From: Tubulanus polymorphus | Taxonomy: Eukaryota > Animalia > Nemertea | Assembly: GCF_964204645.1 (NCBI RefSeq) | Contig: NC_134030.1 | Span: 18,064,210-18,128,209, forward strand | DNA: 64,000 nucleotides | Direction of reading: 5' to 3' | In this document: positions 30,489-61,071 of the stretch, one piece after another | How the letters are laid out: the number at the start of each line of letters is the position of its first letter | How positions within the stretch are numbered: the first letter of the stretch is position 1 | Position numbers and translations under genes: made by a program | Notes under the pieces: generated by a model | Databases searched by the model: none | Seen by the model: only the letters and a program-made list of their open reading frames with translations | Told to the model about the DNA's origin: nothing

Positions 30489-30571
30489 TAGAGACATGGT
30501 CAAAGACTTCGGACCAGTCTTATGATTTAGGATTCAAGACTCAAGCACGACGAGTTAAAATCTATAATTAC

Positions 30572-30698
30572 CGAGATTCTCAGCAGGTCTGTCGATAGTT
30601 TGTTTATCTCCAAGGTAAACAACATTCATCGTATTATTGTCACCGATTTGAACCATTTTCGATTTATCTACATTTATTCCTGTATAACTCTGTGCCAT
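30572..30698 (-). CDS. NLR upstream coding exon C with canonical RHIM motif
   Basis: Acceptor CTGTTTTTCAG| (exon starts 30709), ATG at 30698, MAQSYTGINVDKSKMVQIGDNNTMNVVYLGDKQTIDRPAENL, phase-1 donor G|GTAATT matching the phase-1 acceptor of the NACHT exon. Confidence 0.75.
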
Positions 30699-31254
30699 AG
30701 TACCACAAACTGAAAAACAGGTTTAGAATTCAGTCATTTCATCTCAACAAGTGCAGCACATTTTTCCTGACCTAATTGTTTTGTTCAGTATTTACACAAT
30801 CAGCCTCTACTCATATTCAGACTGAAGTTTTCTTTGTTTCCGCTACTGATAAAGGATAATGGAATGTAGGAAAAAAATGGCCAGGAAAAAAAGGCCAAGG
30901 AAAATTAATGAGAACTACTGACAATGTTAATTAAGCTTTCAATTTAATCTCCATCACAAGTTCGCATTTTGAACGTTAGAATAATTTACTAATGTTCATC
31001 CGCGACTGAGATGGCCTCGATCTCCCGAGAGATTTCCGACGACGTTACAAAACACAGTTGAAATTGTTTATTAGGTTTTTATCGAGTGAAAAATGCATTC
31101 AGATAACGCGCCGGGGTCATCGACTGAGATATCAAATCACACGCCACAACAGGTCGCCATCCGCAAATGACTGACTTTCATTAGATGTTGCAACAACAAG
31201 ACATTAATTTATCTTCTAAAAATGCCTGAATACTGTCTTAATTTGCTGGATTAG

Positions 31255-31372
31255 TTTAAAGCCGGGCGTAGGTCGGCCTTGCGACGCGACGCGATCGTCG
31301 CGGGCGGTCGCAGTGAGTAGCGTCGCAGTGAGTCGCAAGCCGTCGCAAGGCCGACCTACGCCCGGCTTTAAA
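31255..31372. mobile_element. MITE with perfect 32-bp inverted termini
   Basis: TTTAAAGCCGGGCGTAGGTCGGCCTTGCGACG at 31255-31286 and its exact reverse complement at 31341-31372. Confidence 0.8.
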
Positions 31373-32347: not shown

Positions 32348-32417
32348 AGTAATTGGAAAAGTGGGCTTTCAGATCAGAGGGCGAGAGGGCAAGACACCAC
32401 TCATCACCACAAGTAAT
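32348..32417 (+). repeat. Polinton left TIR
   Basis: AGTAATTGGAAAAGTGGGCTTTCAGATCAGAGGGCGAGAGGGCAAGACACCACTCATCACCACAAGTAAT; reverse complement at 49145-49214. Confidence 0.95.
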
Positions 32418-32432
32418 TTTTTTCCCTAATAA

Positions 32433-35400
32433 ACGGGGGAGAATGAATACCAGCCAGAAAACAATAATGTTAATAAAAATCAATATTATTGCACATATTG
32501 TAAAAAATACGTCGATACATCTCATAAAACACGACATGAAAAAACTGCAAATCATATAAAAAATGTAATAGATTTTGAAACTCCAGAAAATTCCAATGAA
32601 AGAAAAGAAAGATTAGAAAATATGAATGTGGATGAAATAAAATGTGAAGTTTGTAATGAATTTATAGTAAAAAGGAATTATAATAGACATCTCGAATCAC
32701 AAAAACACAAACAAAATTTAAGTAATAATGTTTTAGGAAAAGATTATTTCGATGATTAACCTCAAAAAGTAATAAAACCAACTTCAAAAACTAAATCCAT
32801 TTCAAATAAACCTTACATGGAAAATGTTAGAAATTATATTGATTCACTAGAAATAAAAGATACAATTGAAATTTTAGAAACATTACATAGTAAAATTGGT
32901 CCTGCAGCTATTATATTTAGATTTTTTAAAGGTACAACAATAGGAGATTATAGTAAATTTAATGAAATAATAGAAAAAATACTAGATTTTATAACAGATG
33001 TTGAATATCCAAAAATTAGTATCTCTGGGAAAGTAAGTTTTATAAAGTCAGAAGAAAAAATTAATTATAATATTCAAACACACTCTGAAGAAATAATTTC
33101 AAAAACACAAATAAAAGAAAAGTTAGAAAAAATATTTAATGAATTTAAACGTCATATTGAAGAAAGATATTTTGAGGGTTCTGGCTTAACATTGAATGAA
33201 ATTATATATTTAGATTTAAATGTTTATAATACAAAAAGAAATAAAACATCAAAAAGTAATAAAATGTTTAAAAATGATTCAAACTTTACAACAGAAAAGG
33301 ATATTAAAGCATTATCTTATATTAAATTACCATTTACAACAAAAGCAGTAATAAATATTCAAAATGAAGATAATAAATGTTTTCTATGGTCAATTATTAG
33401 TTGCTTACATCCAACACAGGAAAATGTTTGTAGAATAACAGATTATCGGAAATATGAAACATTACATAAAATTGATCAATATCCAGTAACTATAAAAATG
33501 ATTTCTAAAATAGAAAAAGTTAATAATTTAAAAATAAATGTATTCGAATTAATGCAATTACCAAAGACAAAAGGTGAAAATATTAAAGATTATACATTGG
33601 AAGCTTTATATTTAACAGAATATTATGATGATGAAAATGCTATAGATTTGTTATATTACAAAGAAGATGAAAATGAACATTATATGTGGTTAAAACAAAT
33701 TGATTTATTCTTTAGAACAGAAAGTGATCATCATCATAAAAGTTATCTATATAGAAAATGTTTATCTAAATTTATGACTGAGAATACATTATTAAAACAT
33801 AAAGAATTATGTGATAATAAAGATTTTTGTAAATTAATAATGCCAACAGAAAAAGATTATAAATTGAAATTTACTAATCATAAATTTAAGAATATTGTTC
33901 CATTTGTAATTTATGGGGATTTTGAATCGTTGAATAAAGAATTAACTGATCAAGATAGAAAAGAAATATATAACAAAAAGCAATTATTAAAATCAATGGA
34001 TAAAGGAAATGAATTAAATGAAGACACAATACAAGACCCACCAATTATAAATACAATTAAAAAAGTTCATCAAAGAGCTGCTGCTTATGGAATTTATATA
34101 AAATCAAAATATCCTGAATTATATGAAAGTCAATATATTTCTTTTAGAGGTGAAGATGTAGTTAATGATTTTTGTAACAAAATGATTGAATTAGGAAGTG
34201 ATTTTGCAAAATTATTAAACAAAAATAAAAGAATAGTTATGACAAAAGAAGATGAAATTGATTTTAATTATGCAACTCATTGATGTTATTGTGAAAAACG
34301 TTTTTATTCATTTGATAAAAAAGTTAGAGATCATGCTCATTTAAATTCAAAATATCGTGGAGCTGCTCATGAAGATTGCAATTTACAAGCTAAGAAAGTT
34401 AATTTCGTACCAATATTATTTCATAATTTATCAGGCTATGATACCCATCTATTTATAAAACAATTATCGGGAAAATTGGGCGCAATTAATCAAGAAATAG
34501 AAGAATATAATGCTATGAATGGTGTAAATGTAAGAAAATATGATTTTAAACTATTAGCTAAAACATCTGAAAATTATATTTCATTTCAATTTGGTTGCAT
34601 TAGATTTTTAGATTCTTATAGATTTCTAGCAAGTTCATTAGATAATTTATCAAAAAGTTTAGTTGATAATGATTTTGTTATAACTCGATATTATTATCCA
34701 AATGACCAAGATTTTAAATTATTGAGATACAAAGGTGCAATTCCTTATTCATTTTATAAAACACACAATGATTTTAATGTAACAGAATTATAAAAAGATC
34801 AATTTTATGATCAATTAAAAGAGGAGTATGTGAAAGACGAAGTGTTTAATAGAACATTAAATATTTGGAACCATTTTAAGATGAAAAATCATGGTGAATT
34901 AGTTGATTTATATTTAAAATCAGATGTTATGATATTGGCTGACATATTTGAAAAATTTAGAGAAGTTAATTTGAATCATTTTAATGTTGATCCTTGTTAT
35001 TGCTACTCTAGTCCTGGTTTTACCTGGCAATGTGGTTTAAAATATACAAATGTAGAATTAGATTTATTAAAAGAACCAGATATGGTTTTATTATTTGAAA
35101 AATCAATTAGAGGTGGAATTAGTGGTGTTATGGGAGATAGGTATTTTAAAGCAAATGATGAATATAAATTATTATATATTGACGCCAATAATTTATATGG
35201 TTGGGCAATGATGCAACCTCAACCATATAAAAATTTTATATTAACAGAAGTTGAAAATGATGATAAAACTAATTGGGAAAGCGCAATTATGTGTTTAGAA
35301 GATGAAGCAGCAATTGGTTATTTCTTTGTAGTTGATTTAGAATATCCTGAAAATATAAAGTTTAAAACAAGAAACTTACCTTATTGCCCAGAACATTTAA

Positions 35401-37583
35401 CCGTAGATGATAGTTATTTAAGTGAATACCAGAAGAAAATAAAACCGAAAGATCATGTTTTTACAGAAAAATTAATACTTACTCTAAATAATAAATACAA
35501 TTATATTGTTCATTATAGAATGTTAAGATTTTATCTAAAACAAGGAATGAAATTAAAGAAAGTACATAGATATATTGAATTTAATCAATCGAAGTGGTTA
35601 GAAAAATATATAGATTTCAATACTCAACAGAGAACCATATCAAAAACAGATTTTGAAAAAGATTTCTTCAAATTAATGAATAATAGTTTTTATGGTAAAA
35701 CATGTGAAAATATTAGAAATAGAAATGATATTGAATTAGTAAATAATTCTGAAAGATTAAGACATTTACAATCAAGTCCTAGACATTTAGGAAATAAAAG
35801 ATTTGAAGATTATTTAACAGCAGTTAAATTAAAAAGAACGTCAATGAAATTTAATAAACCTATATTCATTGGTTCAACTGTTTTAGAAGTATCAAAATTA
35901 TTAATGTATGATTTTTATTATAATGTTTTACAACCACTTTTTGGGGAAAAGCATATTGAAATATTATGTTTTGATTCTGTAACAGCTGACACCCCAATAT
36001 TGTTAAAATGTAATGATAAAATATTGATAAGAAGAATTTCATAAATAATTCAAAAACAAAATGAATGTTATATTTCATATGGTGAAAAAGAATTAATACA
36101 AATAAATGGATTAATGGATGGTTGGACAAGAAATGGATGGAAAAAATTAAAGAATATTATCTGACATAAAACAAATAAGAAAATCTATAGAGTTAGAACT
36201 AAATTAGGGTTTGTAGATGTTACAGAAAATCATAGTTTAATTAAACGAAATGGCGAAGAAATAAAACCAACTGATATAAAAATTGGAGATGAATTATAAC
36301 ATAAAAGATTTTTCCAAAGAATGAATCATATGTCATTTGATGAAATAATTGACAATATTTATAACATAGAACCCGAAACTTTTGAAGAAAAAGAATATTT
36401 TATCAAAGGATTTTTCATGGGAGATGGTTCAGCAGGTGTGTATAATTATGTTTGGGGTAATAAATATTGCTGGTATTTATGCAATCAAGACTTAAAATTA
36501 TAAGAAAGAATTAAGAAATTCTGTGAAGAAGTTTATTCACATAAAACATTCAAAATCATAGATGTTATGAAATCATCAGCAGTTTATAGAATACTTGTAA
36601 ATAATCCTAAAGATTTTGCTATAAAATATAATTATGAATTCATGCAATAGTGAAAAGTAATACTTCAACAAAAGAAAAGATAGTACCAGATTATGTATTA
36701 AATGCAAAAAAATAATTTAAGAAAGTGGTTCTTCATTGGATTCTATGCCGCAGATGGCACTAAAAAAATTACAAAGGATAAAAAGATAACATTTGCACAG
36801 AAAGGAAAAGTTGCTATATCAGGATTAAATATATTAAGCAGTTCATTAGGATTTAATATGAATATAGAATTAAATAAATCTAAACCAAATTGTTTTAATT
36901 TAAGGCATGTAGAAAAAGAATTAACAGAAGAAGTTAAAGATTTATTTGAAATATATAACCCATCAGATTATGTTTATGATTTATCAACTGAAGATGGAAC
37001 ATTCAATTCTGGGTTCCCATTAATCCAAAAAAATACTGACAGTTACATACTAAAAATCAAGACAAATGACATAAAAAAAGACTTAAAAACATTAAAACAT
37101 CATTTTGATTATCCCAAAGATCATGCACTATTTAGCAATGATAATAAAAAGATTCCTGGTAAATTTAAAGATGAATTAGGGGGTGATGAAATGATTGAAT
37201 TTGTTGGGATAAGAAGTAAAATGTATAGTTATAGAACAAAAGATCATGAAGCTAAAAAGTTAAAAGGAATAACAAAACATGTGGTTGATAAACATATAGA
37301 ATTTCAAGATTGTAATTCAATTGTAATGAAACATAAAATGAATTGTTTAAGATCAGAAGATCACGAGATGTACATTAATGAAGTTGAAAAAACTAGTTTG
37401 AATCCATTTGATGATAAAAGGCATATTTTAGATGATGGTATAAAAACATTACCTTATGGTTATCAAAACATACAATCAATATCATCATACTCGAATTCAC
37501 TATTGGCTTCTTCATTTTTATTTAATTGTTCTTGTATAATTTGTTTAGGTTCTTCTTCCATTTCATTTATCTCATTTAAATAA
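32433..37583 (+). pseudogene. pPolB: Protein-primed family B DNA polymerase with N-terminal C2H2 fingers, vOTU-like protease region, EndoVII insertion and intein; multiple premature stops
   Basis: ORFs 32817, 34476, 34830, 36321 and 36702 share one frame. Motifs NEDNKCFLW..HY, YGDFES (ExoI), VRDHAHL..YRGAAHEDCNL (EndoVII), FHNLSGYD (ExoII), FLDSYRF, YLKSDV (ExoIII), SIRGG, YIDANNLYG, KLMNNSFYGK, D/TDS, GKFKDE, RSKMY, KLKGI. Inferred start is a mutated ACG at 32433. Confidence 0.93.
35976..37034 (+). mobile_element. Intein with LAGLIDADG homing endonuclease in pPolB motif C (decayed)
   Basis: ILCFD|SVTADTPILL (block A); VDVTENHSL (block B TxxH); GFFMGDGS and GFYAADG (LAGLIDADG helices); YVYDLSTEDGTF (block F); IQKN|TDS (block G, +1 Thr). 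Removing it restores D-TDS. Confidence 0.92.
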
Positions 37584-38800
37584 AGTTCTTTCTTGTTCCA
37601 CATTTCATCTCGCTCTCTTTGTTTCTTTTTGTTTGTTAATTCGTCAAATGGAATTATAATATCGATGTTTAAATAATTTACAATCTTATTTAAAAAGAAT
37701 TCATAATTAATTGAATCTGTTATTCTATTTTCCAAATAATACATTAATATTTGTTTAAATATTTTTTTTATATTTTCCATATCTTCTTCTGTTAATTTAG
37801 GTTTTTCATAATAATCGTTAAATAATAAATATAAATACATTTTCTTTTGTTTTTGTTAAATGTTGACGGAATAATTGTTTTTATAATATCTTTTTTAGTT
37901 ATTTCACCATTTTTATTTTCTATTATTTTCATTTTTTCAAGCCATTGCATATATTCTGGTGTATGATCTTCTATAGAAAATATTTTAAAAATTTCATCTA
38001 GATAATTTAATTTTGGTTCTATGAGAAAATTTCTAGTTTTTTCTTCACCCCATGAATTCTTTTGCCATCCACAATCCACAATCAACACAAAATAACACAG
38101 TACCTTCTTGTCTTAAGGTCGCGTAATTACATTGTGGACATTTTCGTTTATAATTTATTGGTAATAGATCTTCATTAAGCTCTTGGTATTTTCTTACATT
38201 TTCTTTATGTTTTATTGTTCTATTATGTAGATTTGAATTACTTGTTGTAATAATCAATTTACAATATTTACAATAATATGTTTTTCTTGTTAATTCATTA
38301 TATTGTTTTTCTAACTTTTCAACTGTTTCTTTATTATCTGGTAACGTTTTCTCATATTTTATTTTTTCTAATAAATTATTTTTTCTTTCATTGAATTCAG
38401 TTTCAAATTTATTAGAAATATTATCTATATGTACTTTACGAAATTGATGATTCTCCCAATCTTCTATATTTTCAGGGCTATATTTTATTCGACAAGGCTC
38501 ACAGAAATGATCTTTTATATTATCCTTATCATAGAATAAGAAAGGTCTTTTCCAAATAATTTCAGGTTCAACTTCAACAGAATTACTATTACTTTCGTTA
38601 CTATCAACATTAGCCGTTGCGCCATTAATTTTACACTTCTCTGAATGTTTTTTAACATAATTTCTTGAGAATAATTTATTACATTTTGGACAGTTTAGTT
38701 TAGGGGGTTTATAATTTTCATCATGTTTTTTCATATGTCGAGCCATATTACTTTTTCTTAGAAGTTCACCACAAATTTCACATGCTATCTTCTCATCCAT
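37463..38800 (-). pseudogene. Polinton multi-C2H2 zinc-finger protein, split by frameshifts into ORFs 38045-38800, 37792-38088 and 37463-37840
   Basis: CEICG..RHMKKH, CPKC..KH..KC, CEPC..H...H, CKYC..H....H, CPQC..CVDC. A CCACAAT duplication at ~38069-38082 coincides with a frame change. Confidence 0.75.
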
Positions 38801-38858
38801 TTATTAGGGAAAAAAATTGCCTGTGGTGATGAGTGGTAATTTTTTTATGTTATAAATA
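38801..38858. promoter_or_regulatory. Putative bidirectional Polinton promoter containing the TIR-shared CCACTCATCACCAC motif
   Basis: The motif also occurs at ~32397-32417, 48851-48871 and 49145-49165. T-run/TAAATG-type starts face both directions. Confidence 0.6.
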
Positions 38859-39960
38859 ATGGTAGAATTAAAAGAATACAGAATATTTGTTGATTCTAGA
38901 AGACTTACAAATTATAAATCTCATAATTTACTAGTACAATTAGATAGAGAATTTAAGAATTGTGTAGATTTAAAATTAGTTAATATAAGTGTATGTAACT
39001 CATTTTACAATAAATCGGATAAAAGTTTTGAACATAGAGGGTTTATGATTTATATGAGAAATAAAGATAAATGGTTTCATATATTTTTAAAACCAGGATT
39101 ATATAATTTAGAATCATTAGCGCAGGAAATTAATAGAAGAGCTCGGTTGAAAATCGGGGGCATTTCTGTATTTGAAATTAAATTTAATAAAATTGATAGT
39201 ACTAATAAAATAAGAATAAAGATATCTAATGAACAACATAAATTTATGGTAAACAAACCACTGGCTAAAATGTTAGGAATTAAACCGCTTACAGTTACTG
39301 GAAACGCAGAAGGCAGCTCAAATATAATACCTTTTACACACTTTTATATTTTTTTTTGATCATAGATTGTTTATGATTCATGATAAAAATATGGATAAAT
39401 GGTATCATCTATTTCTAAGACCAGGATTATATAATTTAGAAACATTATCTCAAGAAATTAATAGAAGAGCTCGGTTAAAAGTGGGTGAATCTGTTGGGTT
39501 TAACATTAAATTTAATAAAATTGATAGTACTAATGAAATAAGAATAAAGTTAACTAATGAACAATATAAATTCATAGTAAGAAAACCATTAGCTTAAATG
39601 CTAGGAGTTAATCCAAATAAAGTTTATTCAAATGTTGATACTACGCCAAATATAATACCTTTTACGCACTTCTATATTTATTGTAATTTAATTGATCCTA
39701 CAAAAACATTCGAAGCAACTAAAGATACAATTTGTAATTCTGGTTTATTAAATATTTTACCATTAAAAAATGTCAAACAATTTGGAACTCAAATAAATTA
39801 TAATTTAACTGAATGTGATTTCAAACCTTGTATTCCACATTTCAATAATTTTGAATTAGAAATAAGAAATCATAATGGTTATTTAATTGATTTGAATAAC
39901 TTTCCTGTAATTTATGAATTAGTTATAAGATGTAGAGTAATTTTTTCACTATATAAATGA
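38859..39960 (+). pseudogene. Minor capsid protein (penton-like) with duplicated internal module
   Basis: N-terminal IFVDSR...L...NSFYN and C-terminal YIYCNLI...LLNILP...FELEIRNHNGYLIDLNN fit Polinton/PLV single-jelly-roll penton patterns; frameshift at ~39359 and stop at 39595-39597. Confidence 0.65.
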
Positions 39961-40316
39961 ATATAACTGTTGGACCGAGTATATGTTTTGGATTTGATTT
40001 TAAAGGTGAGAAAGAAATGAAATTTAACATTAATGATGTAATTACACATATCAAAAATATTGCATTTTCTAATGAAACAACATTTGAGTATGAAAAAACA
40101 ATAGATAAAGAAACTTTAAATGTAGAAAAGATAACTAATTTAATTAGAGAATCTTTAAGATTTTATGAATTAGATGAAGATTTTATAATCGATGATATTA
40201 AAAACATATTAACGGAAATATATGATAATCATAAAAGTAGTAATGAAATAAATGTTGAATTAATCATCACTAAGATAACTAAATATTTTGAAGATAGTAA
40301 TTTTTTTGATAAATGA
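39957..40316 (+). CDS. Polinton hypothetical protein (acidic)
   Basis: Intact ORF preceded by TAATTTTTT..TAAATG. Confidence 0.6.
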   Translation: MNITVGPSICFGFDFKGEKEMKFNINDVITHIKNIAFSNETTFEYEKTIDKETLNVEKITNLIRESLRFYELDEDFIIDDIKNILTEIYDNHKSSNEINVELIITKITKYFEDSNFFDK

Positions 40317-40538
40317 ATGAGTGATAATAAGTGGATAATAACTGGATTATATAATGGAGCATTACTATCAGTTGGAACTGTTGGTTATTCAATGGTATTA
40401 AAAAAGGTCTTCAAAATGGGAAGTGTTAATGTTGATAGATTTGATATAAATGATATCTTAAAATTAACATTAGCAGTTACTTCATCTAATTTAACTATTG
40501 ATTATTTAGAAAAACAAAAATATATTCCTCCCATATAA
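40317..40538 (+). CDS. Polinton small hydrophobic protein
   Basis: Intact 73-aa ORF with the shared upstream motif and two hydrophobic segments. Confidence 0.6.
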   Translation: MSDNKWIITGLYNGALLSVGTVGYSMVLKKVFKMGSVNVDRFDINDILKLTLAVTSSNLTIDYLEKQKYIPPI

Positions 40539-40562
40539 ATACATAATTTTTTTGCTAAATAA

Positions 40563-40985
40563 ATGGCTTCTGCAATTATAACTACTATAGGATCGGCAAT
40601 TGTTAACGCTTTAGCATTTACTGGTGGTGGTTATTTATTTAAACATATTGATAAAAATAGTTCATTAGGAGAACAAAGAAGACATAACTTAGCATTAGAG
40701 AAATATAATAAAGCAGCAGAAGAATACAGAGAAAAACGACAAAACTATATGGATTATATTAACAAGGAATTATATGATCAGAAGATTTCACATAGAGATT
40801 TTCAATCAGTTGATGATGCAATGAGTTTATATAACGCAGTAACCAATAAAGAAAAATTACATCTATACAAACCTAAATTATCAGATTATTATACCCCAAG
40901 TAAAGAACAACAGAAATATGAAATAATTTGGATTTTAGGTGGAACAGTTATTGTTATATTTGTAGCATATAAATTTACTAATTAG
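40563..40985 (+). CDS. Polinton protein with N-terminal amphipathic/Gly segment, coiled coil and C-terminal TM
   Basis: MASAIITTIGSAIVNALAFTGGGYLF...EQRRHNLALEK...IIWILGGTVIVIFVAY; shared upstream motif. Confidence 0.65.
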   Translation: MASAIITTIGSAIVNALAFTGGGYLFKHIDKNSSLGEQRRHNLALEKYNKAAEEYREKRQNYMDYINKELYDQKISHRDFQSVDDAMSLYNAVTNKEKLHLYKPKLSDYYTPSKEQQKYEIIWILGGTVIVIFVAYKFTN

Positions 40986-41004
40986 TAATTTTTTTTCTAA
41001 ATAA

Positions 41005-41439
41005 ATGGAAGATAAAGTTGATAGTATTGATATTATTCCTCATGATATAAATAAAACTAAATTAAAAATATATTTAGAAAAACAAATATTAGAATTTGAA
41101 GGTGACTTAAAGATAAAAAAGAAAAAATATTTAAAAAGTAAAATTATATATTATCTTATTATTAGTGGTTCGGTTACAATTAGTTCTGTAATAACATTTC
41201 TAGCAATATTCAGTCCATTAACACCTTTAGCTATATCAATCGGTGTATTAGGATTAAGTTCAAGTGTTTTAACTGGTATAAGTTCAAAATTAAATATAAA
41301 AAGTAATAAAGAAAAAATTAAAACTAATATAAAAGAAATTAATAAATTGAAGAATACACTAGATCATATAATAAGTTTAAATGGTCATATAACAGTTGAA
41401 GAACAAGATAAATTATTAAAAGAATTAATAAATTATTAA
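41005..41439 (+). CDS. Polinton two-TM protein with flanking coiled coils
   Basis: Two hydrophobic helices at aa ~48-94; shared upstream motif. Confidence 0.65.
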   Translation: MEDKVDSIDIIPHDINKTKLKIYLEKQILEFEGDLKIKKKKYLKSKIIYYLIISGSVTISSVITFLAIFSPLTPLAISIGVLGLSSSVLTGISSKLNIKSNKEKIKTNIKEINKLKNTLDHIISLNGHITVEEQDKLLKELINY

Positions 41440-41455
41440 TTTTTCAATTAAATAA

Positions 41456-42867
41456 ATGGTAGATGGTTTTCCAAAAGCTTTCCAATATAATAAATAAATT
41501 AAATATAATATTCCAGCAATAGATTTTAATAAAGATATTACATATAGAAATGAAGTTTTAGATTCATTAACTAATTTAGAAATTTATGTTACTGAAACTA
41601 ATAATTTTAGTGCAAAGATGGAAAATATATTTCATGTATATTTAATTAATTTAAAAAAATTGAAAGATGAAAAACAATGGTTATTAAAATCTAATATGAA
41701 GTATTGGCAGAACCAATTAAATTTTGCTGTTTATTGTGCAACAACAGGATGTGGAATTAGTTGGAATGATCATTTGAATAATTCTAAATATGAATTAATT
41801 CAAAGTTTATTTAGATTTCATACATACTTTCAAATCAGAATAATATTAAATGAATTAGAGTGCGCTTTACCAGGATCTAGGTATTTTAAAGAATTAGATA
41901 ATAATATTAATTTATCAAAGTTTTTTAAAATTTGTAATGAATTTAATATAGATATAAATAATTCTGATTTTAGAACAAAAATTGGAACAATAAGATCACT
42001 TCCTTGCCCTAAAAAGATTGCAGAATATTGTGCACTTCCCATACCATCTAATAGTTTGTATAATATCTATAGTAATAAATTAGGTTATGGTAAAATAGAA
42101 ACTAAGGATTTAGAAACATTAAATTTCAATAAATTACCGACATTTTATGATAATTTAAAACAAGAAAACAATAATGGTTGGGTTTATTTCATTTTAGAAA
42201 ATAATGAAGGTTTTACAAAATCAGGTATACAAAGAATAAATCAATCTATTAGAACTTATTTGATATGTATTTTAGGTGCGCAAGTTGAAACAAGATCCCC
42301 AATAATTGGAAATTTAAATACATCATTTGATACACAGAAACAATTCAAAGTATTATTTGAAGATTCTATTCATAATGATAAAAATAGATCGATTCCAGAA
42401 AACATTGTGAGATATCAAAATTATTTAGATAAATCACATATTAGACTAAATTATTGTATAGGCCCTAATCTATTTATTATTTCTAACGATTTAGTATTAA
42501 AGATGGGAAACATAATTGGTTATAATAATCTAATTAAAACTGCAACAATAAATAATTCATTTGGATTAAATGATATAAATAAAAAGATTATTACTGCTCC
42601 AAAATTAATGGAAGGTGAAAAAATAAAAAACACATTCAATCAACAGAAACTAAAACTAAAAATATTAAATTGCATAATGATTCTAAAATAAAAGATTACA
42701 ATACATCAGAAAATATAAAAACTGATAATATTCAACATGATATAATTAAAACTGATAATGATAATAAATTCCATGAAAATACTAAATTAGCTTTAACTTG
42801 TACAGGAATTGTTATAGGAGGAATATTATATTTTAAATTTTATTTTTTATTATATAAATGGATGTAG
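41456..42867 (+). pseudogene. Polinton hypothetical protein (WQNQLNFAVYCATTGCG) with C-terminal TM; early stop and late frameshift
   Basis: TAAATG start at 41456 is in frame with ORF 41618; continues in ORF 42670..42867. Confidence 0.6.
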
Positions 42868-44289
42868 AAGGTGGAGAAGATATTGGAATGGATCCTTTAG
42901 ATGAAACTGGTATAACTGATGAATAACAACCTGATTTTAGTGAAACAAGTTTTAATGACGGTAATGAGCCAGGATATAATAATAATTTAAATATGCCTGA
43001 TTATATTTAAAATGCAGAATCACAATTAAATCCTGAAAATTTAGACCCAGATTTAGTAAAACAAGATTTAGATAATTTAAACAAAATAGAGAAATTAGAA
43101 TATATAATTGAAAATTCTAAACTTAACATAAATGATTAAGACGTTGGACCTTTAGCAGATAAATTAAGATTTTTAGATAATGGTAAATGTTATTATCGTT
43201 TGAAAGGTGATTATTATATTGATATCTCTTATAAAAAAGAAGAAAAAATAATAGCAAAATCAACTTTAAAAAAAATTAAAACCAGATAGAATTAAAATAA
43301 TAAGTAATAGTAATGAAATAACTGATGTTACACAAAAAGAAATAGATGATAATATAGACGTATTTAAACAAAAAATTAATGAATTATTTGAAATAATCAA
43401 AAAGAAATCAGAAACAGAAACAACTTCTGAACAGAATAAAACTTCCAAAACTAATAAACTTAATTCAAATAAAGTTCCAATTGAAAAACTTTTACCGAAT
43501 GGATTAATTGATGCAACAGATCAAGAATTAGAAGATTTAAATAATATATTTTCTGATAAAGCAATTAGAGAAATTGAAAGTATAAGACATGCATCTGATA
43601 AAATTGCGCATGATAAAAGTATAAGAGATTTAAAAATTAGAACTTTAGAAGATGAATTATTTAAATCAAGAAAAGAATCGGAACAAGTAAAATTAGATAG
43701 AGATAATAAAGTTATTGAAGAAATCGAATTTAAAAAAAGAAATGCGTATTTAGAAAAAGAAAAAGATGATTTAGAATATAACATAGAATTACAAAAAGAA
43801 GAAATCAAATTATTATCAAAATCATATGATTATAATATTAATAGATTAAAAGTTATTTTTAAAGATTTATTGATAAAACCAAATTCTGAAATATCATTGA
43901 AAGATAGAATAAAGTTATTATTTAAATTAGAAGGAATAACAATTCTTTCAATTCTAACAGCTGTAACTATGTTATTTACAACAATAGGTTTAGCAATATC
44001 AAATGCTTTAAAATCTACTCCTACTCCCAATAAACCGGATAAACCCCCGAATGATAATTCTATACAAGATAAAGTTAAAGATGGTTTAAAAAAATTAGCA
44101 AAATATCTATGGGAACTATCTAAAAAATCTGCTGCAGCTTTACCAGGAATTATTGCATCAATTGTTGGTTTTATATTGAAATCTGCTGGGAATATTCTTT
44201 ACTTTGCTGCTGAACATATTATTTTAATTTTAATTACAGTTGTAAGTGCTATTATTTTTGGGTTAGTGAATATGATTAAAAATAAATAA
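42858..44289 (+). pseudogene. Polinton acidic/coiled-coil protein with C-terminal hydrophobic helices; several stops
   Basis: TAAATG start MDVEGGEDIGMDPLDE...; C-terminal GITILSILTAVTMLFTTIGLAI...ALPGIIASIVGFIL in ORF 43870..44289. Confidence 0.6.
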
Positions 44290-44309
44290 TTAATTTTTTT
44301 GTTAAATAA

Positions 44310-45561: not shown

Positions 45562-45591
45562 AAATATAAAGTTAAAATTAAGGATATATAA

Positions 45592-47145: not shown

Positions 47146-47155
47146 ATTTATTTAA

Positions 47156-47427: not shown

Positions 47428-47458
47428 CAACAACACAACTAATTTATTTGTTATACAA

Positions 47459-47990: not shown

Positions 47991-47997
47991 ATAATAA

Positions 47998-48390: not shown

Positions 48391-48509
48391 TTGAATATTA
48401 ATTGAATAGCTCACTACTTTTGTCTATCTATGCGGAGCAATTAAATTTTCCAGATAAGTCATTTCGGATTCTAGATATTCATTATTTTTATTAATTTATT
48501 TTTTTAAAT

Positions 48510-48835
48510 TTAATCAACAATTTCTAAATCATGATGTCCATCTTCATTTTTTCCATGATAGATTATTTTAAATCCTTCTAAATCTTTTAATTCCTCTGTA
48601 CTCAATGAAACCCATTTATCAGGTAAAAATACTTTAAATTCTCTCGATGTACTAACATTACAGTAGCTTAAATTAGCTGATACTTTCTCTCCATATTTAG
48701 TTTTTATCTTTTCTAATTTCAATATTTTATGTTCAATTTCTTTTGTAACATCAACTAACTTTTTTATTTCAAATTGTTTTTTGCTGGTTTTATTCTGTTA
48801 TTTATTGTTGCTAAGAATGCTTTTCTATCTCCCAT
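48510..48835 (-). pseudogene. Polinton small terminal protein (~108 aa), 1-nt frameshift in an A-run
   Basis: CCACTCATCACCAC..TAAATG start at 48835 (MGDRKAFLATINNRIKPA); adding one A joins ORF 48510..48722. Confidence 0.6.
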
Positions 48836-49144
48836 TTATAAGGAAAACAAATTACTTGTGGTGATGAGTGGGGATTACTTCCCCCTGTATATAACAAACA
48901 CGCTATTAACCGTTCTCACCCAAGCCTCACAGCATCTATTTATCTGGGCACAGTTGACACGCAATCACTGTACTACAGTAATAGCACACGCGTTAATAAC
49001 CGTTTTCAGTAGAGACTCACTGTATCGATCTATCCACGCGCAGCTGTTGTTACCCGCACTCACTGTATATGTGTATCACAGAGCAATCGTCCGTTCTCAC
49101 TAGAGCCTAGCTGTGATGAGTGGTGTCTCATACTCAATTGAATT

Positions 49145-49214
49145 ATTACTTGTGGTGATGAGTGGTGTCTCGCCCTCTCGCCCTCTGATCTGAAAGCCCA
49201 CTTTGCCAATTACT
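49145..49214 (-). repeat. Polinton right TIR
   Basis: Reverse complement of 32348-32417 with 2 mismatches; followed by TCGATG. Confidence 0.95.
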
Positions 49215-50862: not shown

Positions 50863-50947
50863 CGAGATTCTCAGCAGGTCTATCGACGGTTTGCTCCTCG
50901 TCATCGCGAACATTTTCTGCATTTATTCCTGGAAAACTCTCCGCCAT
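50863..50947 (-). CDS. Paralogous NLR upstream exon B (RHIM absent)
   Basis: Same acceptor and 11-nt leader; MAESFPGINAENVRDDEEQTVDRPAENL; phase-1 donor G|GTAATT. Confidence 0.55.
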
Positions 50948-51063
50948 AGTACCGTTTACTGAAAAACAGGATTAAAAATTCAGTCATTTTAATCTCAACA
51001 AGTGCAGACTTTTTCCTGACCTAAGTGTTTTGTCCAGTATTTACACAATCAGCCCCGACTCAC

Positions 51064-51238
51064 ATTCAGACGTCACAAGTTGAAAGTGACAAAATCGAGG
51101 AAACGAACAGCAACAGCTATCGACGGTTTGCTCCTCGTCATCGCTTGATTCATGTATCGTCAATGTACTATTGACGCCTAATTGAATATTTTCTGCATTT
51201 TCTGCATTTATTCCTGGATTACGATTACTCTCCGCCAT
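51064..51238 (-). CDS. Paralogous NLR upstream exon A with RHIM-like IQLG motif
   Basis: MAESNRNPGINAENAENIQLGVNSTLTIHESS...; donor GAAT|GTGAGT at 51064/51063, phase 1, in frame with exon B. Confidence 0.55.
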
Positions 51239-53190
51239 AGTACCGTTTACTGAAAAACAGGATTTAGAATTCAGTTATTTTATCACAAGTGCAACACATT
51301 TTTCTGACCTAATTGTTTTGTCCAGTTTTTACACAATTAGCCTCTATGTAGCGTTTCGTAGTTAGTATACATTAAAACTCTGGCATGTCTCTGCATCTAC
51401 ATGGTACCTGAAAAATACTCACCGGACGAGCGTGTGTACTCGCTCGTACCAGGTTTAATCATCGTGGTAGCGTGATCCTCTTTTGTATCCTCAGAGTATA
51501 TATGTGTAAACGTGTACGTATGTAATAATGTATGTAAAATGGCGTCGCTACTAAGGGTTCGCCTGCGTCGCGTAAACAACGGGAAAGATGTTTATGAAGG
51601 GGTATACGACCACCACAGGAAGATATGTTTGTGTGTAGAATAACAAATGGCTCTCAGGCTTAACTCGACCTAGCACACGAGTAAGCATTTCCCGCAACCC
51701 CGGGTGTAGATTGCTGATAGATCCAGGAACGCAACGACTGGGCCGACTCGAAAACTACCCTCCGGGAACTAAGGATCGGACCCCAACCCTATATTAGAAC
51801 CTATAGATAGCGATGCGCACCCTTATGTCCACCAAATAACTCACTATCTCGTGGTTATACATGGACCCGAGTCGACCGTTAAACACACCACGTCACCCAC
51901 CCCCGACGTGGAATTTCCTCGCTTGAGCCTAAATTGGATAGCGGAATAAACGGACACCGCCCGTCACCCGAACGGGATTGCACTACGTTCCGCTGGACTC
52001 TATCCGTTCCGAGAGCGAGCCTCTACGCAGACCATGAACGCTCAGACCAAATCCACGGTTTTGCTACGGCCGACATACTCATACGGAATCGTTAATATAA
52101 TTTCACGTACTGCGACAGCAGCTTTTACTTAATCACAAGAAATCAACATACGTCATGCTCAAAGACAAGATAGGTTCATACTCTGCAAATGCTTACATAC
52201 TTACAAAAAGGGAAAAGACTATGCGATTGACACTTGCTATTAAACTTTAACCTCACACAACGAACACATATAGACCGCGGACATTACATAACCTTAAGGG
52301 TTGCCTATATGAATTTCATTTAAACTAAAGTACGCGCACATACAAACCGGCCTTAGAGGCCTATAATAAAAAGACAACGAAGACGATAATAGCTTATAAT
52401 GATATCAAAAGCAATGAATTAGACCCGTGTTAAATACTTAAGTATGAACGGGGAGAGAAGATAAGACTTAATACCACGGCTGTACAAAGTGTCAACTCGC
52501 ACCTGCCACAACCACCTGCGGCAAGGTGCTTTTCTAAGAAATTCGCAAAGGCCGCTGGGAATATTCCGTGTATCTGTAATGGCTGCCGCTTCAAGCAGTC
52601 GGCAAGCCGGCGCGAGCGTTCAATACCGATCCTTAACAGTCGATTATATTTCGAAAATGTATAGTAAGTAAAAACACAATATAGTTGTAATATGTGTGAG
52701 TAGTATTTATAATTAATTTCCTCTAAGAATTTACCCGTTTTAATCTCCACCGGCAAGCGAAAATAAACTTAATCTCCATCTTTTAGTCGCGTTGCTACCC
52801 GGAAGTAACTCTCAGCTGTTTCACTTTGTTTAGGCCTAAAATCCTCGGAAAATAGTAATAACACTACTCAAAGGGTATTTTACGACATATATGTCCGGGA
52901 AGAGTCTACTGCTGATCGGAGCATGCACTTTTTAGCTCCGACTAGCGCTGTGTGTGGCAAAAGCGAGTAGTAGTGTAGGCCTAAAATAGCAGGGAACACT
53001 AACAGTTCGTCAGTTGTCGGGTCGAGTAAGTTGGCACAGACAGTCTACTTAGCGATTAGAGCAGCAAATAGTAGTAGGCCTAGGCCCCAATGTCCTGTGG
53101 TTTTCTCAGAGAAAGAGACAAAAGGAAAGCCAATTTGTCTTACATGTCATCCTTAGGCCACGTGATTGGAATAGGCCTAGCCTATGAAAT

Positions 53191-53661
53191 CACAGGCACT
53201 TGAATATGGGCTTTGATAATGGATAAATATTTAATAATTCACCAGCGATATGTTATTCCTGACTTCGATAATCCGCCATGTTTTATAATGAAGTTACCCG
53301 TGATGCAACGCGTGCCCCTCGTCTAACTATACTATACAGAAAGGCTGGAAACGCTCCTATCTCCGTAATGCTTAAATCTACCCGCAACTATCGGGACAGC
53401 CGAACACTGCCGATGATTGCCGAAGTACGTCCCAAGTGTTAATTTTAATCCTGAAATACAAGGAGCGCCCATAATTTCAATTGTAGATGATTTTTTGGAA
53501 ATATTGACACTGTTTTAGCTCCGTTAAAGATTTCAACTGGCAACGAAATTGATTTTTGAAAATTTGCGATGCCACTTCGTGGTGTTTTTATCGTAAATTA
53601 CAATAAATTTTATCATTTTTAACACACCAACAAGGTCAAAGCCCATATTCAAGTGCCTGTG
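53191..53661. mobile_element. MITE with 26-bp perfect TIRs and 7-bp TSD ATGAAAT (P-element-like CANRG ends)
   Basis: ATGAAAT|CACAGGCACTTGAATATGGGCTTTGA ... TCAAAGCCCATATTCAAGTGCCTGTG|ATGAAAT. Confidence 0.85.
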
Positions 53662-54007
53662 ATGAAATTAAAAATTCTTGTCATTCGGGACTGGGACTGT
53701 GGGGGGCCGGGTGGCGAGATTCGTCTGACTGGGACTAGCGAAATTTGTCTTTGAGTCTGAGGTGCCATAAGTGAATCAATTTGTAAAAAGAAGCTGTCAC
53801 AAAAATTATTTCAGCTTTGTGCTAGTCAGTCCCTTGACCTCGATATTTTGTCTAAATTTTTGTTGTTGTACTCATTAGGACATAGCCTACTGGAGATGAC
53901 ATACTGCGATGATGCGATATTTCCAAGAGTTAAATTCAAGTGATGCCGATGTGAAGTAGAAAGGATTGTTGTAAGTAGATTAAGATTTTATTGAAACGTT
54001 TACAGCC

Positions 54008-54448
54008 GCTGACAGTAGAGCGAGCGGGAGGGATTAAACCCGAACATAAATCTACGGTTTAAAAACCATAGAGTTGCCCATTTCCCATCCACTTCTCTAC
54101 TGTCAGACAAACAGACAGATAGACTGACAGACAGACATAGACAAACAGAATACATTAATATTTAATCGGCTGACAGTAGAGCGAGCGGGAGGGATTAAAC
54201 CCGAACATAACTCTACGGTTCAAAAACCATAGAGTTGCCCATTTCCCATCCACTTCTCTACTGTCAGACAAACAGACAGATAGACTGACAGACAGACATA
54301 GACAGACAGAATACATTAATATTTAATCGGCTGACAGTAGAGCGAGCGGGAGGGATTAAACCCGAACATAACTCTATGGTTTAAAAACCATAGAGTTGCC
54401 CATTTCCCATCCACTTCTCTACTGTCAGACAAACAGACAGATAGACAG
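54008..54448. repeat. 161-bp tandem repeat (~2.8 copies), each unit containing a ~100-nt hairpin
   Basis: CTGACAGTAGAG...CTCTACTGTCAG closing stem; inner AACTCTAYGGTT..AACCATAGAGTT. Confidence 0.9.
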
Positions 54449-54474
54449 CCGTAAATCATGTTACACAAGCAAGA

Positions 54475-56945
54475 CTAATGTATGTTTGCAATATTTAAAC
54501 ATAATTTACAAGAACGTGTGTCTCCATTTTTTTTGTAGAAACCTCCACAAAAACATTTTCGTGTAACGCGGACATCGGTTTTGGACTTAGTACTATACAA
54601 ACCCTGGTTGATAAACATCAGTTTCGCTGGTGTAACTTTATTTCTCAAGCATGAATAAACACGGACATCCCTATTCATGCTAGCGTGCTTGCTTTCCAAG
54701 CCCTGTTCCCCGAACATTCCTAGAGAACGCCAGATATTGACAAATTCAGGCACATGAAAAATTAACATATGCATTTTGGGTGTTATTGTTTGTTCCGGGA
54801 AAGTTCTTGGAAACCAAGCACCGAAATCCTTACAAAAGGTTTCCAAATCTGCCACTTCTTCATCTGATAAAAATCTACATGCAGAATACAGTTTGTACAT
54901 TTGTGCGAACCGTTGAAATAATTCTTGGTATATGAGCTGAATGTCTGGGTAATCTGATAGTACAGATAGTAATTTAACCGGATTATTTATTCCTTTATCA
55001 GGGTTTATGTTCAACAGCTTGTTGATATGGTTACCATTGAATGAAAGTGAATGGTAAGCCTGTCTGTCTATCCCAATTTCATGCAGTTTTTCATTGAGCG
55101 CTGACTGTAGTGGACCCATTTTTGAGCAAACCTCTTTGTAAATTTCATCTAGCTTTAATTTTCTAGGTCTTATTTGATCTTTCTTTGCCTTTATGTCAGA
55201 TTTGATTTTATTAGTTTCAGATTCGAGGTTTTTCAAGAACTTATGGCCTGTACTATTGGGTTTGAGACACCTTATGCACTTAAACGCTTCCACAGTGCCA
55301 TAAATCGAAATGCAGTCAGTGTGGTACGGTGAATCACAAGAGGTACAGTATTCAAAGTTGTTAACATTTCCATTTTCTATTTCCTGTATGACACAAATTG
55401 GGGCACCACAATGAAATGGTGAACGTCGCCTCTGATCTGCTCTTTTCAATACATCTATAGTCTCGATATTTTGTGCGAGTATTAATTTCAAATCTTCCAA
55501 TTCATTTACAAGATTTTGGACTACGTTTGATACACTTTTCCATTTATGGTACAGTTCTGGGTCTCTGTTCCCTAATGTTGAATGGTCGAGATCTTTACAT
55601 TTGTCTTCGACCATATCATAGATTTTTAGTCCGATTCCTAATGTTATGTGAAGAGGAGGTGGTACTAAGTGTTCTAAATCAAGTGGCCTATACAGCATAG
55701 GACCACTAATACTGTGCGATGACGGGCCAATCATGGTTGGTGCCGTCTCGATTAATTTAGAACTTTCGATATAGTGGTTAATACTACGGTTTTGATAAGT
55801 GTTCGCGGAATGAGAGGTGCCATCTTTTTTTCTCAGATGATCAAGAGGCACCATGCACTTAAGACATGGATAAGATGCTGTTGAGCCCTGATGACCCATC
55901 ATTGTGCTTTGATATGCAAGATCCCCGATGAAAAAAGTTCGAGCTTGTATTGTTTTTCCATCTAGAAAAATTGTGAATGGGGTTTCTAATGCCTCTTTTA
56001 ATGGCCCGAAAATCATCTTCAAGTTTTCAGCATTATCAGTTGCTTCAAAATAACCGACCAATTCACAACTATCGGGGCTATTGGGTGATAGCCCATTAAC
56101 TATGGAAAAAACCATTTTTGTACTCCCACCCCCCTTATCAATTCCTGTCTTAATCCATATTTCATCGTGAAAGTTTTGATGGAATAAGAGATTTCCAATT
56201 TTGTGCAGATGTTCTGCATGTCTTTGAGCTTGTGCGTGAAAATCATCTATGATTACATAGGGCGCAAGTTTTCTTTCGTGTGTACGGGAATTAATCTCTA
56301 GGATTTCTTCACCCGCAATGACATAAGGGGCAAATGACATTTCTCTGTTTTTTATTTCAGTTCGAATTTCTGCCACAGTTGGAAATACAGGAATGTCAAA
56401 GTTTTTTAAATCTCTCTTCAAATCAAGAAGACGAATCATTGGCATTCGTTGCCTCAACTTAATGTCAACAGCCTGTTTTGGGGTGAGCATGTGGAACAGT
56501 TTGATATCAGCTTCACGTAAGGCTGCATTCGTTACCGTGGGATACCTTTTGAAAAATTTGGCGAGTGTACAAGCAGAATCTTGGACGTTACTTTCTGGTG
56601 ATGATATTCCTTCAACAAAATCTTTCAATTTATCTGCGCGACTATTAAGCGTGTTTCTAGATGCTGACACTGACGGGGTACGGATTACTGGTACATTTGA
56701 GTTTAATTGGGATTGTAATGAAGAAATAGTTATATTTTGCTGATTGATTATTTTGTCTTTTTCTGTTATTTGATTTCTCAAAGTTGAAACTTCATTTTCC
56801 AATTCAATGATTCTTGTTGAGTCAGACTTTTGCCAGAAATTTGATTCTTCGTCAGTTGTAATGCTTATAGTATCTAAGCATGGCTCTGTCAAAGTTGACT
56901 CATCTTTATGGGGTGGAGAATTTATGAACTCCAGTTTTTTTTTAC
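54475..56945 (-). CDS. RAG1/Transib/Chapaev-like DDE transposase with inserted PHD finger (intact exon; upstream exons likely)
   Basis: GIDKGGG (D), IGDLAY (D), YPCLKC, PPPLHITLG, TPKMHMLIFHVPE, GEQGLESKH (E) parallel the RAG1 core D600, D708, C727/C730, H795, H937/H942, E962. C4HC3 at ~55267-55410. Probable acceptor TTTGCCTAG| at 56945. Confidence 0.75.
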
Positions 56946-59900
56946 CTAGGCAAATTGAAGTTGAAGATGAGTAAGAGTGAAGAAGATAGAGGCAAAACAA
57001 TTCATAATTCTAGAGTAATTGATTAATAATCAAATGTATTTTACTACGTCACAATTAAGTGCAAGTTTTTCTATATCTAACTATATCTCAGTGAAATAAA
57101 TCGTCATAATTGATAAAATTCAGTACATGTATGACATTTGTTATCAATCATTTGAAGCTTGATCTGTTTGTGATTTTATTTGAGTTCATTTCTACACCAG
57201 GGCTGGGTTTCAGAGATGTGTGGAAGCAAAATAGTTTCGGAACATTTAGAAAATTGTCAGTTATAACCATGGTTTCTCATTTTCACTATGGTGGTTGTCA
57301 CACCGATTGAGGATTATTTGGTACTCAGTCTATGAAACCGGGCCCAGGATATTCAAGGTTTTATTTATTCAATCTATTTTCCCAAAAAATATCACTACGT
57401 GACTACAACCCCGATATGGATTTTCTAATCCCTAAAATTATGACTTCATCCTGGATTCCCATGAACTGGAACAGAGTATTCCAAAATTTGAATAAGACAT
57501 GTATCTTTTTATAAGAGTAAGCTTTCTGGATTGAATAACAAATTCAAGGTTACTGAAAATCTAGAACTTACAAATGCATGATCAATCATGTGAAACACGA
57601 ACCAGAAACCATTCGCAGAAATAAAATGCAATGAATGAATTAAAGGAACAATGAATATCTTAAGGAATTCTTTATTAGTATCAAAAAGTCAACAAGAGTT
57701 TTTCATGAAATTTAGACTCACAGTTTCTTCTTTTTTGGCCGAACCGTCGTTTTTTCCCGCCAGCGCCAACTTTTGAACCAAGCGATCCACCTGAAAAATA
57801 GAAATAGCAATGTTTTTAAAGATCTTTCAATTTCATCCATATGAACTAAAAAATTAATTTTGTTGTTGCTCAACTTACCAGAGTGTTGTGACATTTTGAA
57901 GTTGTAGAAGTCGACAAGAAAACTGAAAATATATTTGGAAAAATCAGCTTCATGCAGCTTGGCATTTTTAGACAATTTCTGATTTCTGATTAGTAATAGA
58001 ATACTTACCGAGCGACGACAAAATGTCTGCAACTGCAACTGTCTGAATTCAAACAGTGAGAGTTGAAGTAGACCGACGAGAAAACTGAAAATATATATCA
58101 ACTCCATGTAGTAGGCCTAGTTGTGTGCTTTATAGACAATTTCTGATTAGGAATACTAACTGGAGCGACAACAAAATTTTGAGTAAGGGGCTGAATTCGA
58201 ACTCCAAATTATTTCCAACGAGAAAACTGAAAATATTCCAAAAATCATAGGGTAGTTGTGCATTTTATAGACAATTTCTGATTAGGAAGCTTAGCCCTAC
58301 TTACCAAAGTGGAAAGATGTCGAGCTTAAGGGTTCGAATTCAAACACCCAAGGCCATTCATCCACCAGCCTACCGACATGCGTAATAGCAATAAAAAAGA
58401 AACTGAAAATAATACCGAAAACCCTACTTATTAGACATAAGAGGCCTGGCCTAGATTTGAAAAAATAATACTGGCCCAATGAGTGACCACAGTACTTAGT
58501 AATAGTTTGAATAGGCCTTTTGGTATTGTGGTTGATCCGGAAAGTGAAGAAGTGTGCTGGATTGTAAACAGGTAAATAGCCTAATGCGACGAGCTCGCAT
58601 CTCGAGTGGCCTAAATAATTAGCCATAGCCTACCACGGCCGAGTCGGGTTGAGCTCCACTTGTTCTCCCATCATCGATAGGGAAGGCCGACGTTTTATAC
58701 ATCAAACGAAAGCTAAAAAGCTCATATAGTTCATAGACGAAAATTATAAACGATCCATCGTACTATATTTTCGATATATAAAGTATCTTACCCAAGACTT
58801 GTATCGCCCGAGTCGTTAAATTTTCTCTCCACTTTGAAGCGGTCCGGCGGCAAAAGAGTCGCAGGTAAATGGCGTTTAATACCCTTACGAACTAATCTAT
58901 ATACTCAAGAACCTGCTACAGGGGATTGCATCAAGTCAACCTCGTTCGTTTAAGCACACTAAGGGAGCTAGGAAAAACCGTTAGATCGCGTACTTAAGCA
59001 TTTGGAGCATACGCGCGATGGTCACGTGACCCCGCCGTGGATCAATAATCGCTATTGACAATCGAAGCGAAACGCCGTACAGCCGTGATACATAACGATA
59101 CGAATCAATCCGTCTCTAATACATAAGTATTGACGGACTTTAGTTCAAAGATCCTATAGCCGAAATAGAAACACGACCGAAACCCGTCTGTAATACATAA
59201 GTATGGGCGGGAGCTATAATGCTTAAAGCTTAAAGCCGCGGACACACTGGGCGATTTCGTCGGCCGACGAAATCGGCGAACAGCGCCGCTTATTTTGAAA
59301 CGACCAGCTGCTAGCGCCACCTTTAATAAATCAAAGAGCCGTGATTGGCTGGTTAATACGGCGCTCGAGGCGACTGATCGCCGTACCCGGACCAGGGATG
59401 AGAACGCCGACCTGTAAAATCCGCGGGTTATTTTTCTTGAGTGACATACGCGAACCAGCTGACGGCTGCCGAGCGAGCGCCGAAGGCGCGAAGCTATTTC
59501 GGGGCGGTTTGGGGGCCCTCCCCCAAGAAAATTTTAGAAATTAAATACGTTTTCCGAGCACTTAGAGCGATCTCGAACCCATGAACGACTATTATATTTT
59601 GGAAGGTAATGGCTAGTTCCAATGTGGTACATCCTCATTTGATGACATTCAGCATCTCATGCATTACGGGTCGAGCCCTGAATTATTGCAGTAAAAATGC
59701 GCCGATGAATGCTCACTAAAAATCATCACCAAGTAGTGTATAATATCCGAAAGCGTTCGCCACACACACGCAGCAACAGTAAGTAGACCTATATACGTTC
59801 CTACTGTTGCTGTGCGTGCGTGTCTGCAACCGATCGATAAAATACATACAAACTCATCGTAGTACAAATGTACATACAAAATCACTGTGTTGCAATGAAT

Positions 59901-61071
59901 ATGCATTGAAATGCGATACTTTTACGTGACGATAAGTAAAACAGGCACTGAACGCTTTTACGGTTCACCTGATTACCGATCGCGCCGGACCAATTGAGTG
60001 AGATCATCACCCCCGCGCCGGACCAATTGAGTGAGATCATCATTCTGTGGGCTTAAGGCCCTTGATTTTCAACTCGGAAAGAAGAACAGAGACGAACGGG
60101 TGCAAGACCCGAAACGCCGCCAGGCGGCGCTGTCCCCGGACCGACTTACATCGTTAAAGGATGATCTCCAAGTAACTGACTATACTAAAAAGTCGCACGT
60201 CTTATATTCACGCATTGCCGACTCCGATGTGTTGCATCACTCCGCGTCGCTTCGCTGGTCGCTCAACAATGGCCGTCGCGGTAGATGTGCTTCTTCGCAT
60301 TCTTTCGAGTCGCTCTGCTGCTGGACTACGTCGTCTACATGCAGATGCCATATATCATTAAAAAGCTTAGAACTTTCACTTTCTAATGGTGTGAAATGTG
60401 TGGAGGATCGTCCATTCGTAAAGATTAATAAGGTCTCGAAAGGCGGTCGTCATGCGTGACCGCGTTCAGGACCGTCGATTCAATCGTCGAATTCTCGGCA
60501 TTTTTAGGATATGAGGGTGCCGAAATCATCTTCTGGATTTGTAATATTGAGGACTATATAAGGGCGTTAACTTCGTGACTAGAAATTAAGGTGATAGCTT
60601 ATAATGATAGCCGCAAGACGTCGGTGTAGAAACTTAAACTCTCCAGTTAGGCTAGTCGAGCGGGCCATGTGCTCGTACCGGAAGAAAACAAACCGGCGAA
60701 ATCGTCTCAACTAATAAACTACGGCTCGTGTCGCCTAAAAATGATGAAATTCGTAGATGCTTTCACCGAGTCAAGACTTTATAATCCTCTTTCAAACGGT
60801 ATCACACGTGATAGCTTTCGATAATTATTTCGTGTGTAAAAGGCGAGATAAATGCAGCGGCGGTACTATTTACCACCGGGAACAATTTCGGGATTAAGGA
60901 GTCGCGGGTTATCGTCGGCGCCGGAGTAAGGGGAAGGTATCTTCTGCAAGGTCGCTAATAAACAAGGGGAAGGAGGAATCTGTCTTGAGAAATGAAATTT
61001 TGTTACATCTACACACATTCAGACGTCACAAATTGAAAGTGACGAAATCGAGGAAACGAACAGCAACAATT

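Follow-up and report, generated by a model that had tools for sequence, protein, structure and literature searches.

Amyloid-tag signalling by NOD-like receptors (NLRs) is established in fungi and has been suggested for amphioxus (PMC4262963). In the Branchiostoma protein BF82280, with its RHIM-NACHT-repeat layout, and in fungal NWD2-type NLRs, a short N-terminal amyloid motif replaces the death-fold domain in front of the NACHT domain and the repeats, tandem RHIMs (RIP homotypic interaction motifs) occur, and clustering of the tags has been proposed to seed amyloid in NWD2/HET-S and in BF82280 (PMC4262963). RHIM-NACHT-repeat proteins, RHIM-less splice forms and the shuffling of NLR front ends are each already known. 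Here we describe a locus of the nemertean Tubulanus polymorphus in a 64,000-nt stretch of contig NC_134030.1 (the whole stretch is called the window), in which a NACHT-leucine-rich-repeat (LRR) receptor exon is likewise headed by short motif cassettes, named A, B and C. The reading that we favour, and to which we give an even chance of being right, is that this is one NLR gene with a row of symmetric phase-1 mini-exons, which are included or skipped by splicing to leave the receptor with zero, one or two predicted RHIM tags.

The three paralogous cassettes lie on the minus strand ahead of the receptor exon, where the initial annotation had placed them (Table 1), and the sequence confirmed the acceptor and phase-1 ends that it had described. 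Their lengths of 186 nt (A), 96 nt (B) and 138 nt (C) are all divisible by three; each cassette is directly preceded by the acceptor CCTGTTTTTCAG, has an ATG 11 nt into the exon and ends after the first base of a codon, where a GT follows. All three are thus symmetric, and their acceptors and donors are intact, the donor of A being borrowed. All seven ordered combinations of A, B and C read through into the NACHT exon (acceptor 28227) without an internal stop and give 972-1080 aa, which bears out the claim that the junctions stay in frame. The common upstream intron of about 100 nt was also borne out, with 90-94% identity between the copies. The leader of 11 nt before the ATG is shared only in part, because the ATG is 11 nt in for all three but the first 5 bases in C are unlike those of A and B. 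VQIG in C and IQLG in A were both present, and B has no tetrad. B had been described as having lost exactly the RHIM core; a net 48 nt spanning the tetrad is indeed missing, but this is a family-wide cassette type found at three loci and not a local accident, and an origin of B by local deletion of A was rejected for the same reason. When the window was searched with a profile of the three copies (nhmmer), a fourth did not appear; the best match after them had an E value of 0.07.

The receptor exon matches NACHT (PF05729) with 63 bits against a cut-off of 26.7. Its structure model (pLDDT, the predicted local distance difference test, 74.8) shows repeated beta-alpha units from residue ~505 on, which points to an LRR solenoid, and the best whole-length Foldseek matches were NLRC4, NLRP3 and NOD2 (E 1e-17 to 1e-21). 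At E 0.001 the protein of the window had no match to a Pfam LRR model, and LRR_14 was below threshold in its paralogs. A 9-bp tandem repeat in the LRR region (25935-26021, LLG/LRE units) varies in length among paralogs. In a comparison with 25300-32340, contigs of unknown kind from X5 and X9 cover the NACHT exon, mostly at under 95% identity, and none of the 8 joints listed there joins C to NACHT; X7 and X8 had no match in this stretch, and X8 had none on A or B.

Support for cassette splicing comes from the annotated relatives. A first search returned 26 matches, of which 13 were close (57-78% by BLAST) and were all RefSeq models of T. polymorphus, while the other 13 were at 23-27%; a further search added three close T. 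polymorphus matches before identity dropped to about 30% (amphioxus, starfish). The paralog set comprises 15 T. polymorphus loci. In the tree, the protein of the window groups as sister to six rows, with 96/96 support and 79-82% identity. Cassette-family N-termini were found at 11 of the 15 loci, and most units end in an RPAENL-like motif. The RHIM-less B type occurs at three loci, up to five times in one model. With C' denoting a C-like unit with VQMG and E a unit with a degenerate SIIG core, the paralog models B+C'+NACHT and B+B+C'+NACHT share the unit order of the window. LOC141909593, on a 16.7-Mb record, has four RefSeq isoforms (X1-X4) that share one NACHT body and begin with B+E+C', B+E, B+C' or only B, which is the full two-by-two set. 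Cassette content also differs between the isoforms of LOC141909594 (B+D+E and B+D+C') and LOC141914657 (chains of 7, 3 and 4 units), and LOC141914658 has two isoforms that begin in different units, so that such differences appear at 4 of the 11 cassette loci. As far as is known, NCBI builds alternative isoforms of this kind only with transcript support. The proposal of isoforms with zero, one or two RHIMs is in this way supported by LOC141909593 and three more loci; for the window locus itself such isoforms are predicted. Several paralog cassettes look like internal exons because their ATG is lost. This, together with the dead leader donor of C, weakens the other mechanism that had been proposed, the use of alternative promoters.

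Other fronts also occur among the 15 loci, with immunoglobulin (Ig) domains and a membrane helix at three and an unrelated helical region at one. Exons at 431-2165 (+) in the window are 73-87% identical to the Ig/membrane/Cys-rich front of the Ig-TM-NACHT (TM, transmembrane) models LOC141906709 and LOC141906642, and LOC141906641 has the same architecture. These models thus place the same NACHT-LRR body in a predicted membrane receptor too; no plus-strand NACHT was found within the window. Exon-like matches (46-85%) at 7892-12983 (+) correspond to the N-terminal helical region of LOC141914492, the third kind of front end. In the model P0013 (LOC141910914), residues 1-173 hold seven tandem xQIG units, four of them VQIG, a high-valency version of the tag; a search with this N-terminus gave five matches, all five in T. 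polymorphus.

The identity of the cassettes as RHIMs is best supported for C, which passes the Pfam RHIM model (PF12721) with 22.6 bits (cut-off 20, E 7e-5). Cassettes A and B had no match to this model. The tetrads of both C and A conform to the core consensus (V/I)Q(V/I/L/C)G (PMC9444067). A sequence search of the PDB with C and A gave 0 matches at E 10. A search of longer proteins with C gave one candidate and none at E 1, in a search so insensitive that known paralogs were missed too. The complex prediction of four copies of C scored 0.02.

The repeated unit consists of the leader end, an intron of ~105 nt and the first coding exon, and each cassette may have arisen by duplication of this unit. 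The part of A derived from a cassette is only its first ~133 nt; the 3' end and the donor proper to the cassette are missing. Its last 52 nt (51064-51115) are a copy of the leader at 61017-61068, with 55 of 58 nt identical across the aligned stretch. Because A breaks off before the cassette end common to B and C, its sole phase-1 donor comes from the leader. The leader homology at the end of A and its truncation together indicate that A and B form a local tandem of ~290 bp in which A is truncated. The fusion junction of A and leader was found in an X1 contig (50944-51264, 321 nt, 1 difference); the X1 contigs may or may not derive from the source sample. In C, the upstream leader donor reads AT instead of GT (30814-30813), and C therefore most likely needs an upstream exon. 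A and C are identical at 87 of 93 intron positions and at 83 of 120 exon positions (p 6e-6). Over 36 codons, a small sample, the proportion of nonsynonymous differences (pN 0.32) was below that of synonymous ones (pS 0.50), and positive selection on A versus C was rejected for this reason. The simplest reading is that A and C would be old cassette types under purifying selection in a homogenised or constrained acceptor frame.

The leader copy noted at ~61017-61068 is present, but it is not simply an additional copy; it is probably the original leader of A itself, because its intron, which breaks off after 8 nt, resumes before A at about 51346, beyond an insertion of 9.66 kb. An X1 contig of a paralog or allele joins the minisatellite next to this leader to cassette sequence (joint 51222-61162, side 33). 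Both leader copies (51076-51110 and 61030-61063, minus strand) contain TCACTTTCA and TGACGT, which we take to resemble sites for interferon regulatory factors (IRF) and cyclic-AMP response elements (CRE). The insertion itself has neither long terminal repeats (LTRs) nor long inverted ends, and an LTR element was rejected since terminal direct repeats are absent. The multi-copy DNA transposon of 6.6 kb nested in it, presumably Chapaev/RAG1-like, has an empty-site joint (52470-59088) in X6 DNA reads and in one X1 contig.

The second large insertion, in the intron between B and C, carries what we take to be the marks of Polinton/Maverick elements, namely inverted repeats starting with AG, a 6-bp target duplication, an integrase, a protein-primed polymerase, a packaging ATPase and a capsid. 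The integrase has rve and chromo domains and the ATPase is of the A32 type; the matches to DNA_pol_B_2 and Capsid_N are weak and both below the Pfam cut-offs, and the polymerase gene is broken by several stops. In the catalytic DTDS-type motif of this gene there is an insertion at ~35970-37040 (+) with a weak LAGLIDADG match (E 0.003), which is presumably intein-like. Because its 6-bp target duplication is clean, the element removed nothing, and a deletion caused by it was rejected. Without it the intron is about 3.3 kb and holds no NACHT remnant. Just downstream of the stop of the NLR, a non-LTR retrotransposon (20276-24811, minus strand) has an endonuclease and a reverse transcriptase in two frames and a small ORF1.

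Table 1. Positions, strands and main characters of the features at the cassette-NACHT locus (numbered within the window).
Feature	Position	Strand	Character
Single phase-1 exon: NACHT, helical domains, LRR-type solenoid	25394..28227	-	943 codons, intact
Cassette C, RHIM	30572..30709	-	ATG 30698; VQIG; Pfam PF12721
Copy of the 105-nt intron before C	30710..30822	-	leader donor AT in place of GT; ~8 nt of leader homology
Polinton/Maverick-type element in B-C intron	32348..49214	+	70-bp inverted ends; 6-bp duplication TCGATG
Cassette B, RHIM-less type	50863..50958	-	ATG 50947; 27/28 residues as in paralog B-type cassettes
Intron before B, 105 nt	50959..51063	-	
Second leader copy fused to A	51064..51116	-	supplies phase-1 donor GTGAGT and 17 extra codons
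Cassette A, body	51117..51249	-	ATG 51238; tetrad IQLG; truncated before own donor; no Pfam RHIM match
Rest of ~100-nt intron and acceptor of A	51250..51346	-	
Composite insertion in first intron, ~9.66 kb	51347..61008	.	TAG repeated on both sides
Nested DNA transposon	52475..59087	-	CAC...GTG inverted ends; 4-bp duplication GTAT; intact 844-aa open reading frame with DUF1280
Putative non-coding leader exon, 3' part	61017..61068	-	donor GT at 61016; 95% match to 51058-51115
19-bp minisatellite, directly upstream of leader copy	61074..61527	.	

Taken together, the family layout would be B, then C, then NACHT, to which a local duplication may have added A, fusing it to the leader of B, and the two mobile-element insertions would later have stretched the introns without removing an exon. 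In the protein, ligand-driven oligomerisation of NACHT would cluster the tags and so seed amyloid with a downstream RHIM partner, as known RHIM biology suggests. Isoforms in which the acidic B cassette is the only one would be able to sense and to oligomerise, but not to seed, and might damp the signal, by analogy with ZBP1-S. The initial annotation had put forward switchable amyloid specificity and a dominant-negative form, both of which are hypothetical.

Several points weigh against this reading. The use of A, B and C as exons is suggested by splice signals and by the paralog models, and the RefSeq isoforms are themselves predictions. Because some cassettes are identical between paralogs (C' at two loci), mis-mapped reads may have produced false isoforms. 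Some models are probably shaky, since the NACHT body of LOC141914657 X2 differs from that of X1 and X3 (86% identical) and the start of LOC141907592 reads cassette sequence out of frame. As with A, no Pfam RHIM match was found in the cassette-bearing paralogs, 7 of 7 and 2 of 2, scanned as whole proteins, and their cores VQMG, SIIG and RKSG are off the consensus. The in-frame fusion of A is a weak argument, as the phase would fit by chance in one of three cases and 58% of shuffled tails were free of stops. The insertions lengthen the introns by 9.7 and 16.9 kb, and within the Polinton the gene strand holds AATAAA 40 times. In two other nemerteans, Lineus ruber and Notospermus geniculatus, RHIM genes were not detected in a survey (PMC9835746), and the RHIM system may therefore be restricted to one lineage.

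The alternative that survives best is that the family works as described but that this allele is crippled, the insertions having cut off A and B so that the allele makes either C-NACHT alone, starting anew or from a leader left unspliced, or no product. The 9.66-kb insertion comes within 8 nt of the leader donor, the Polinton in the B-C intron is AT-rich, the leader donor of C is dead and A is truncated; the NACHT protein of the window is also not among the annotated proteins found. However, the 943-codon exon, every cassette acceptor and the donors of B and C are intact, whereas the polymerase of the Polinton carries several stops, and we consider the crippled allele unlikely.

It is also conceivable that the rows of cassettes vary at the DNA level only, by unequal crossover, so that each allele makes one fixed chain in which B is a spacer, and that the sets of RefSeq isoforms are mapping artefacts among paralogs that hardly differ. 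From locus to locus the cassettes show few differences or none, recombination is evident from chimeric fronts and bodies, repeats follow in one run without cassette ends between them at two loci, and, of the 11 cassette loci, 4 have truncated models or come from records of 68-107 kb. All four combinations occur, however, at LOC141909593 on its long record, and skipping would depend on just such strict phase symmetry and conserved acceptor introns, which makes this account quite unlikely. The initial annotation had also allowed that A and B are orphans of a deleted paralog. On this account a paralog next to C-NACHT would have lost its NACHT exon by deletion, and C-NACHT would be a separate gene. 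Although cassettes and NACHT bodies are interleaved in clusters of paralogs (LOC141914657/8) and the introns downstream of B and C have no common sequence past the donor, this is very improbable given the clean Polinton duplication, a window in which 21 paralog proteins (tblastn) found NACHT only at 25.4-28.2 kb, the order of B before C' before NACHT in paralog models and the lack of a working leader donor for C.

If splicing of the cassettes as favoured above is real, T. polymorphus offers a natural series of RHIM variants (VQIG, IQLG, VQMG, SIIG and blank) on near-identical receptors, and the rules of RHIM specificity would therefore be directly testable. RHIM-type NLRs would also extend to Nemertea, a phylum in which the two species surveyed earlier had yielded no RHIM genes (PMC9835746). 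A bolder version, which we hold to be possible but doubtful, is a spliced 'amyloid barcode', that is, a small library per gene of RHIM-variant and blank exons that cells combine to set the choice of downstream amyloid partner and the strength of seeding; in that case an innate receptor would be diversified in its output and not in its recognition surface.

The literature searched, in which subscription journals were largely absent, gave no report of an NLR with a spliced array of RHIM exons and no paper on NLRs in Tubulanus polymorphus. In Dscam1 and the clustered protocadherins, rows of paralogous exons are joined by splicing to a constant body. Unlike in those genes, the part that would vary here is the signalling output and not the recognition surface, the exons appear to be additive instead of excluding one another, and the arrays are small, with 1-7 units. 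For BF82280 and the NWD2-type receptors, no exon array or splicing is reported in the parts of the paper considered (PMC4262963), whereas in the window every motif sits in a symmetric exon of its own, a cassette without a motif has been retained and the phylum is a different one. The RHIM-less alternative splice form ZBP1-S of the mouse, which inhibits the full-length sensor, resembles the proposed blank isoforms, but it is a shortened form in a two-form switch of a Z-alpha sensor (PMC11535224), in contrast to the proposed combinatorial N-terminal cassettes with several motif variants on an NLR. The Ig-TM-NACHT models recall AjNLRC4 of the sea cucumber (PMC8699970). Finally, sponge NLRs combine one NACHT-LRR body with different fronts (PMC3879445), as does the family of the window with RHIM cassettes, Ig plus transmembrane fronts and a helical domain; the shuffling known so far takes place between genes over evolutionary time, whereas here we propose a choice within the gene that would be made for each transcript.

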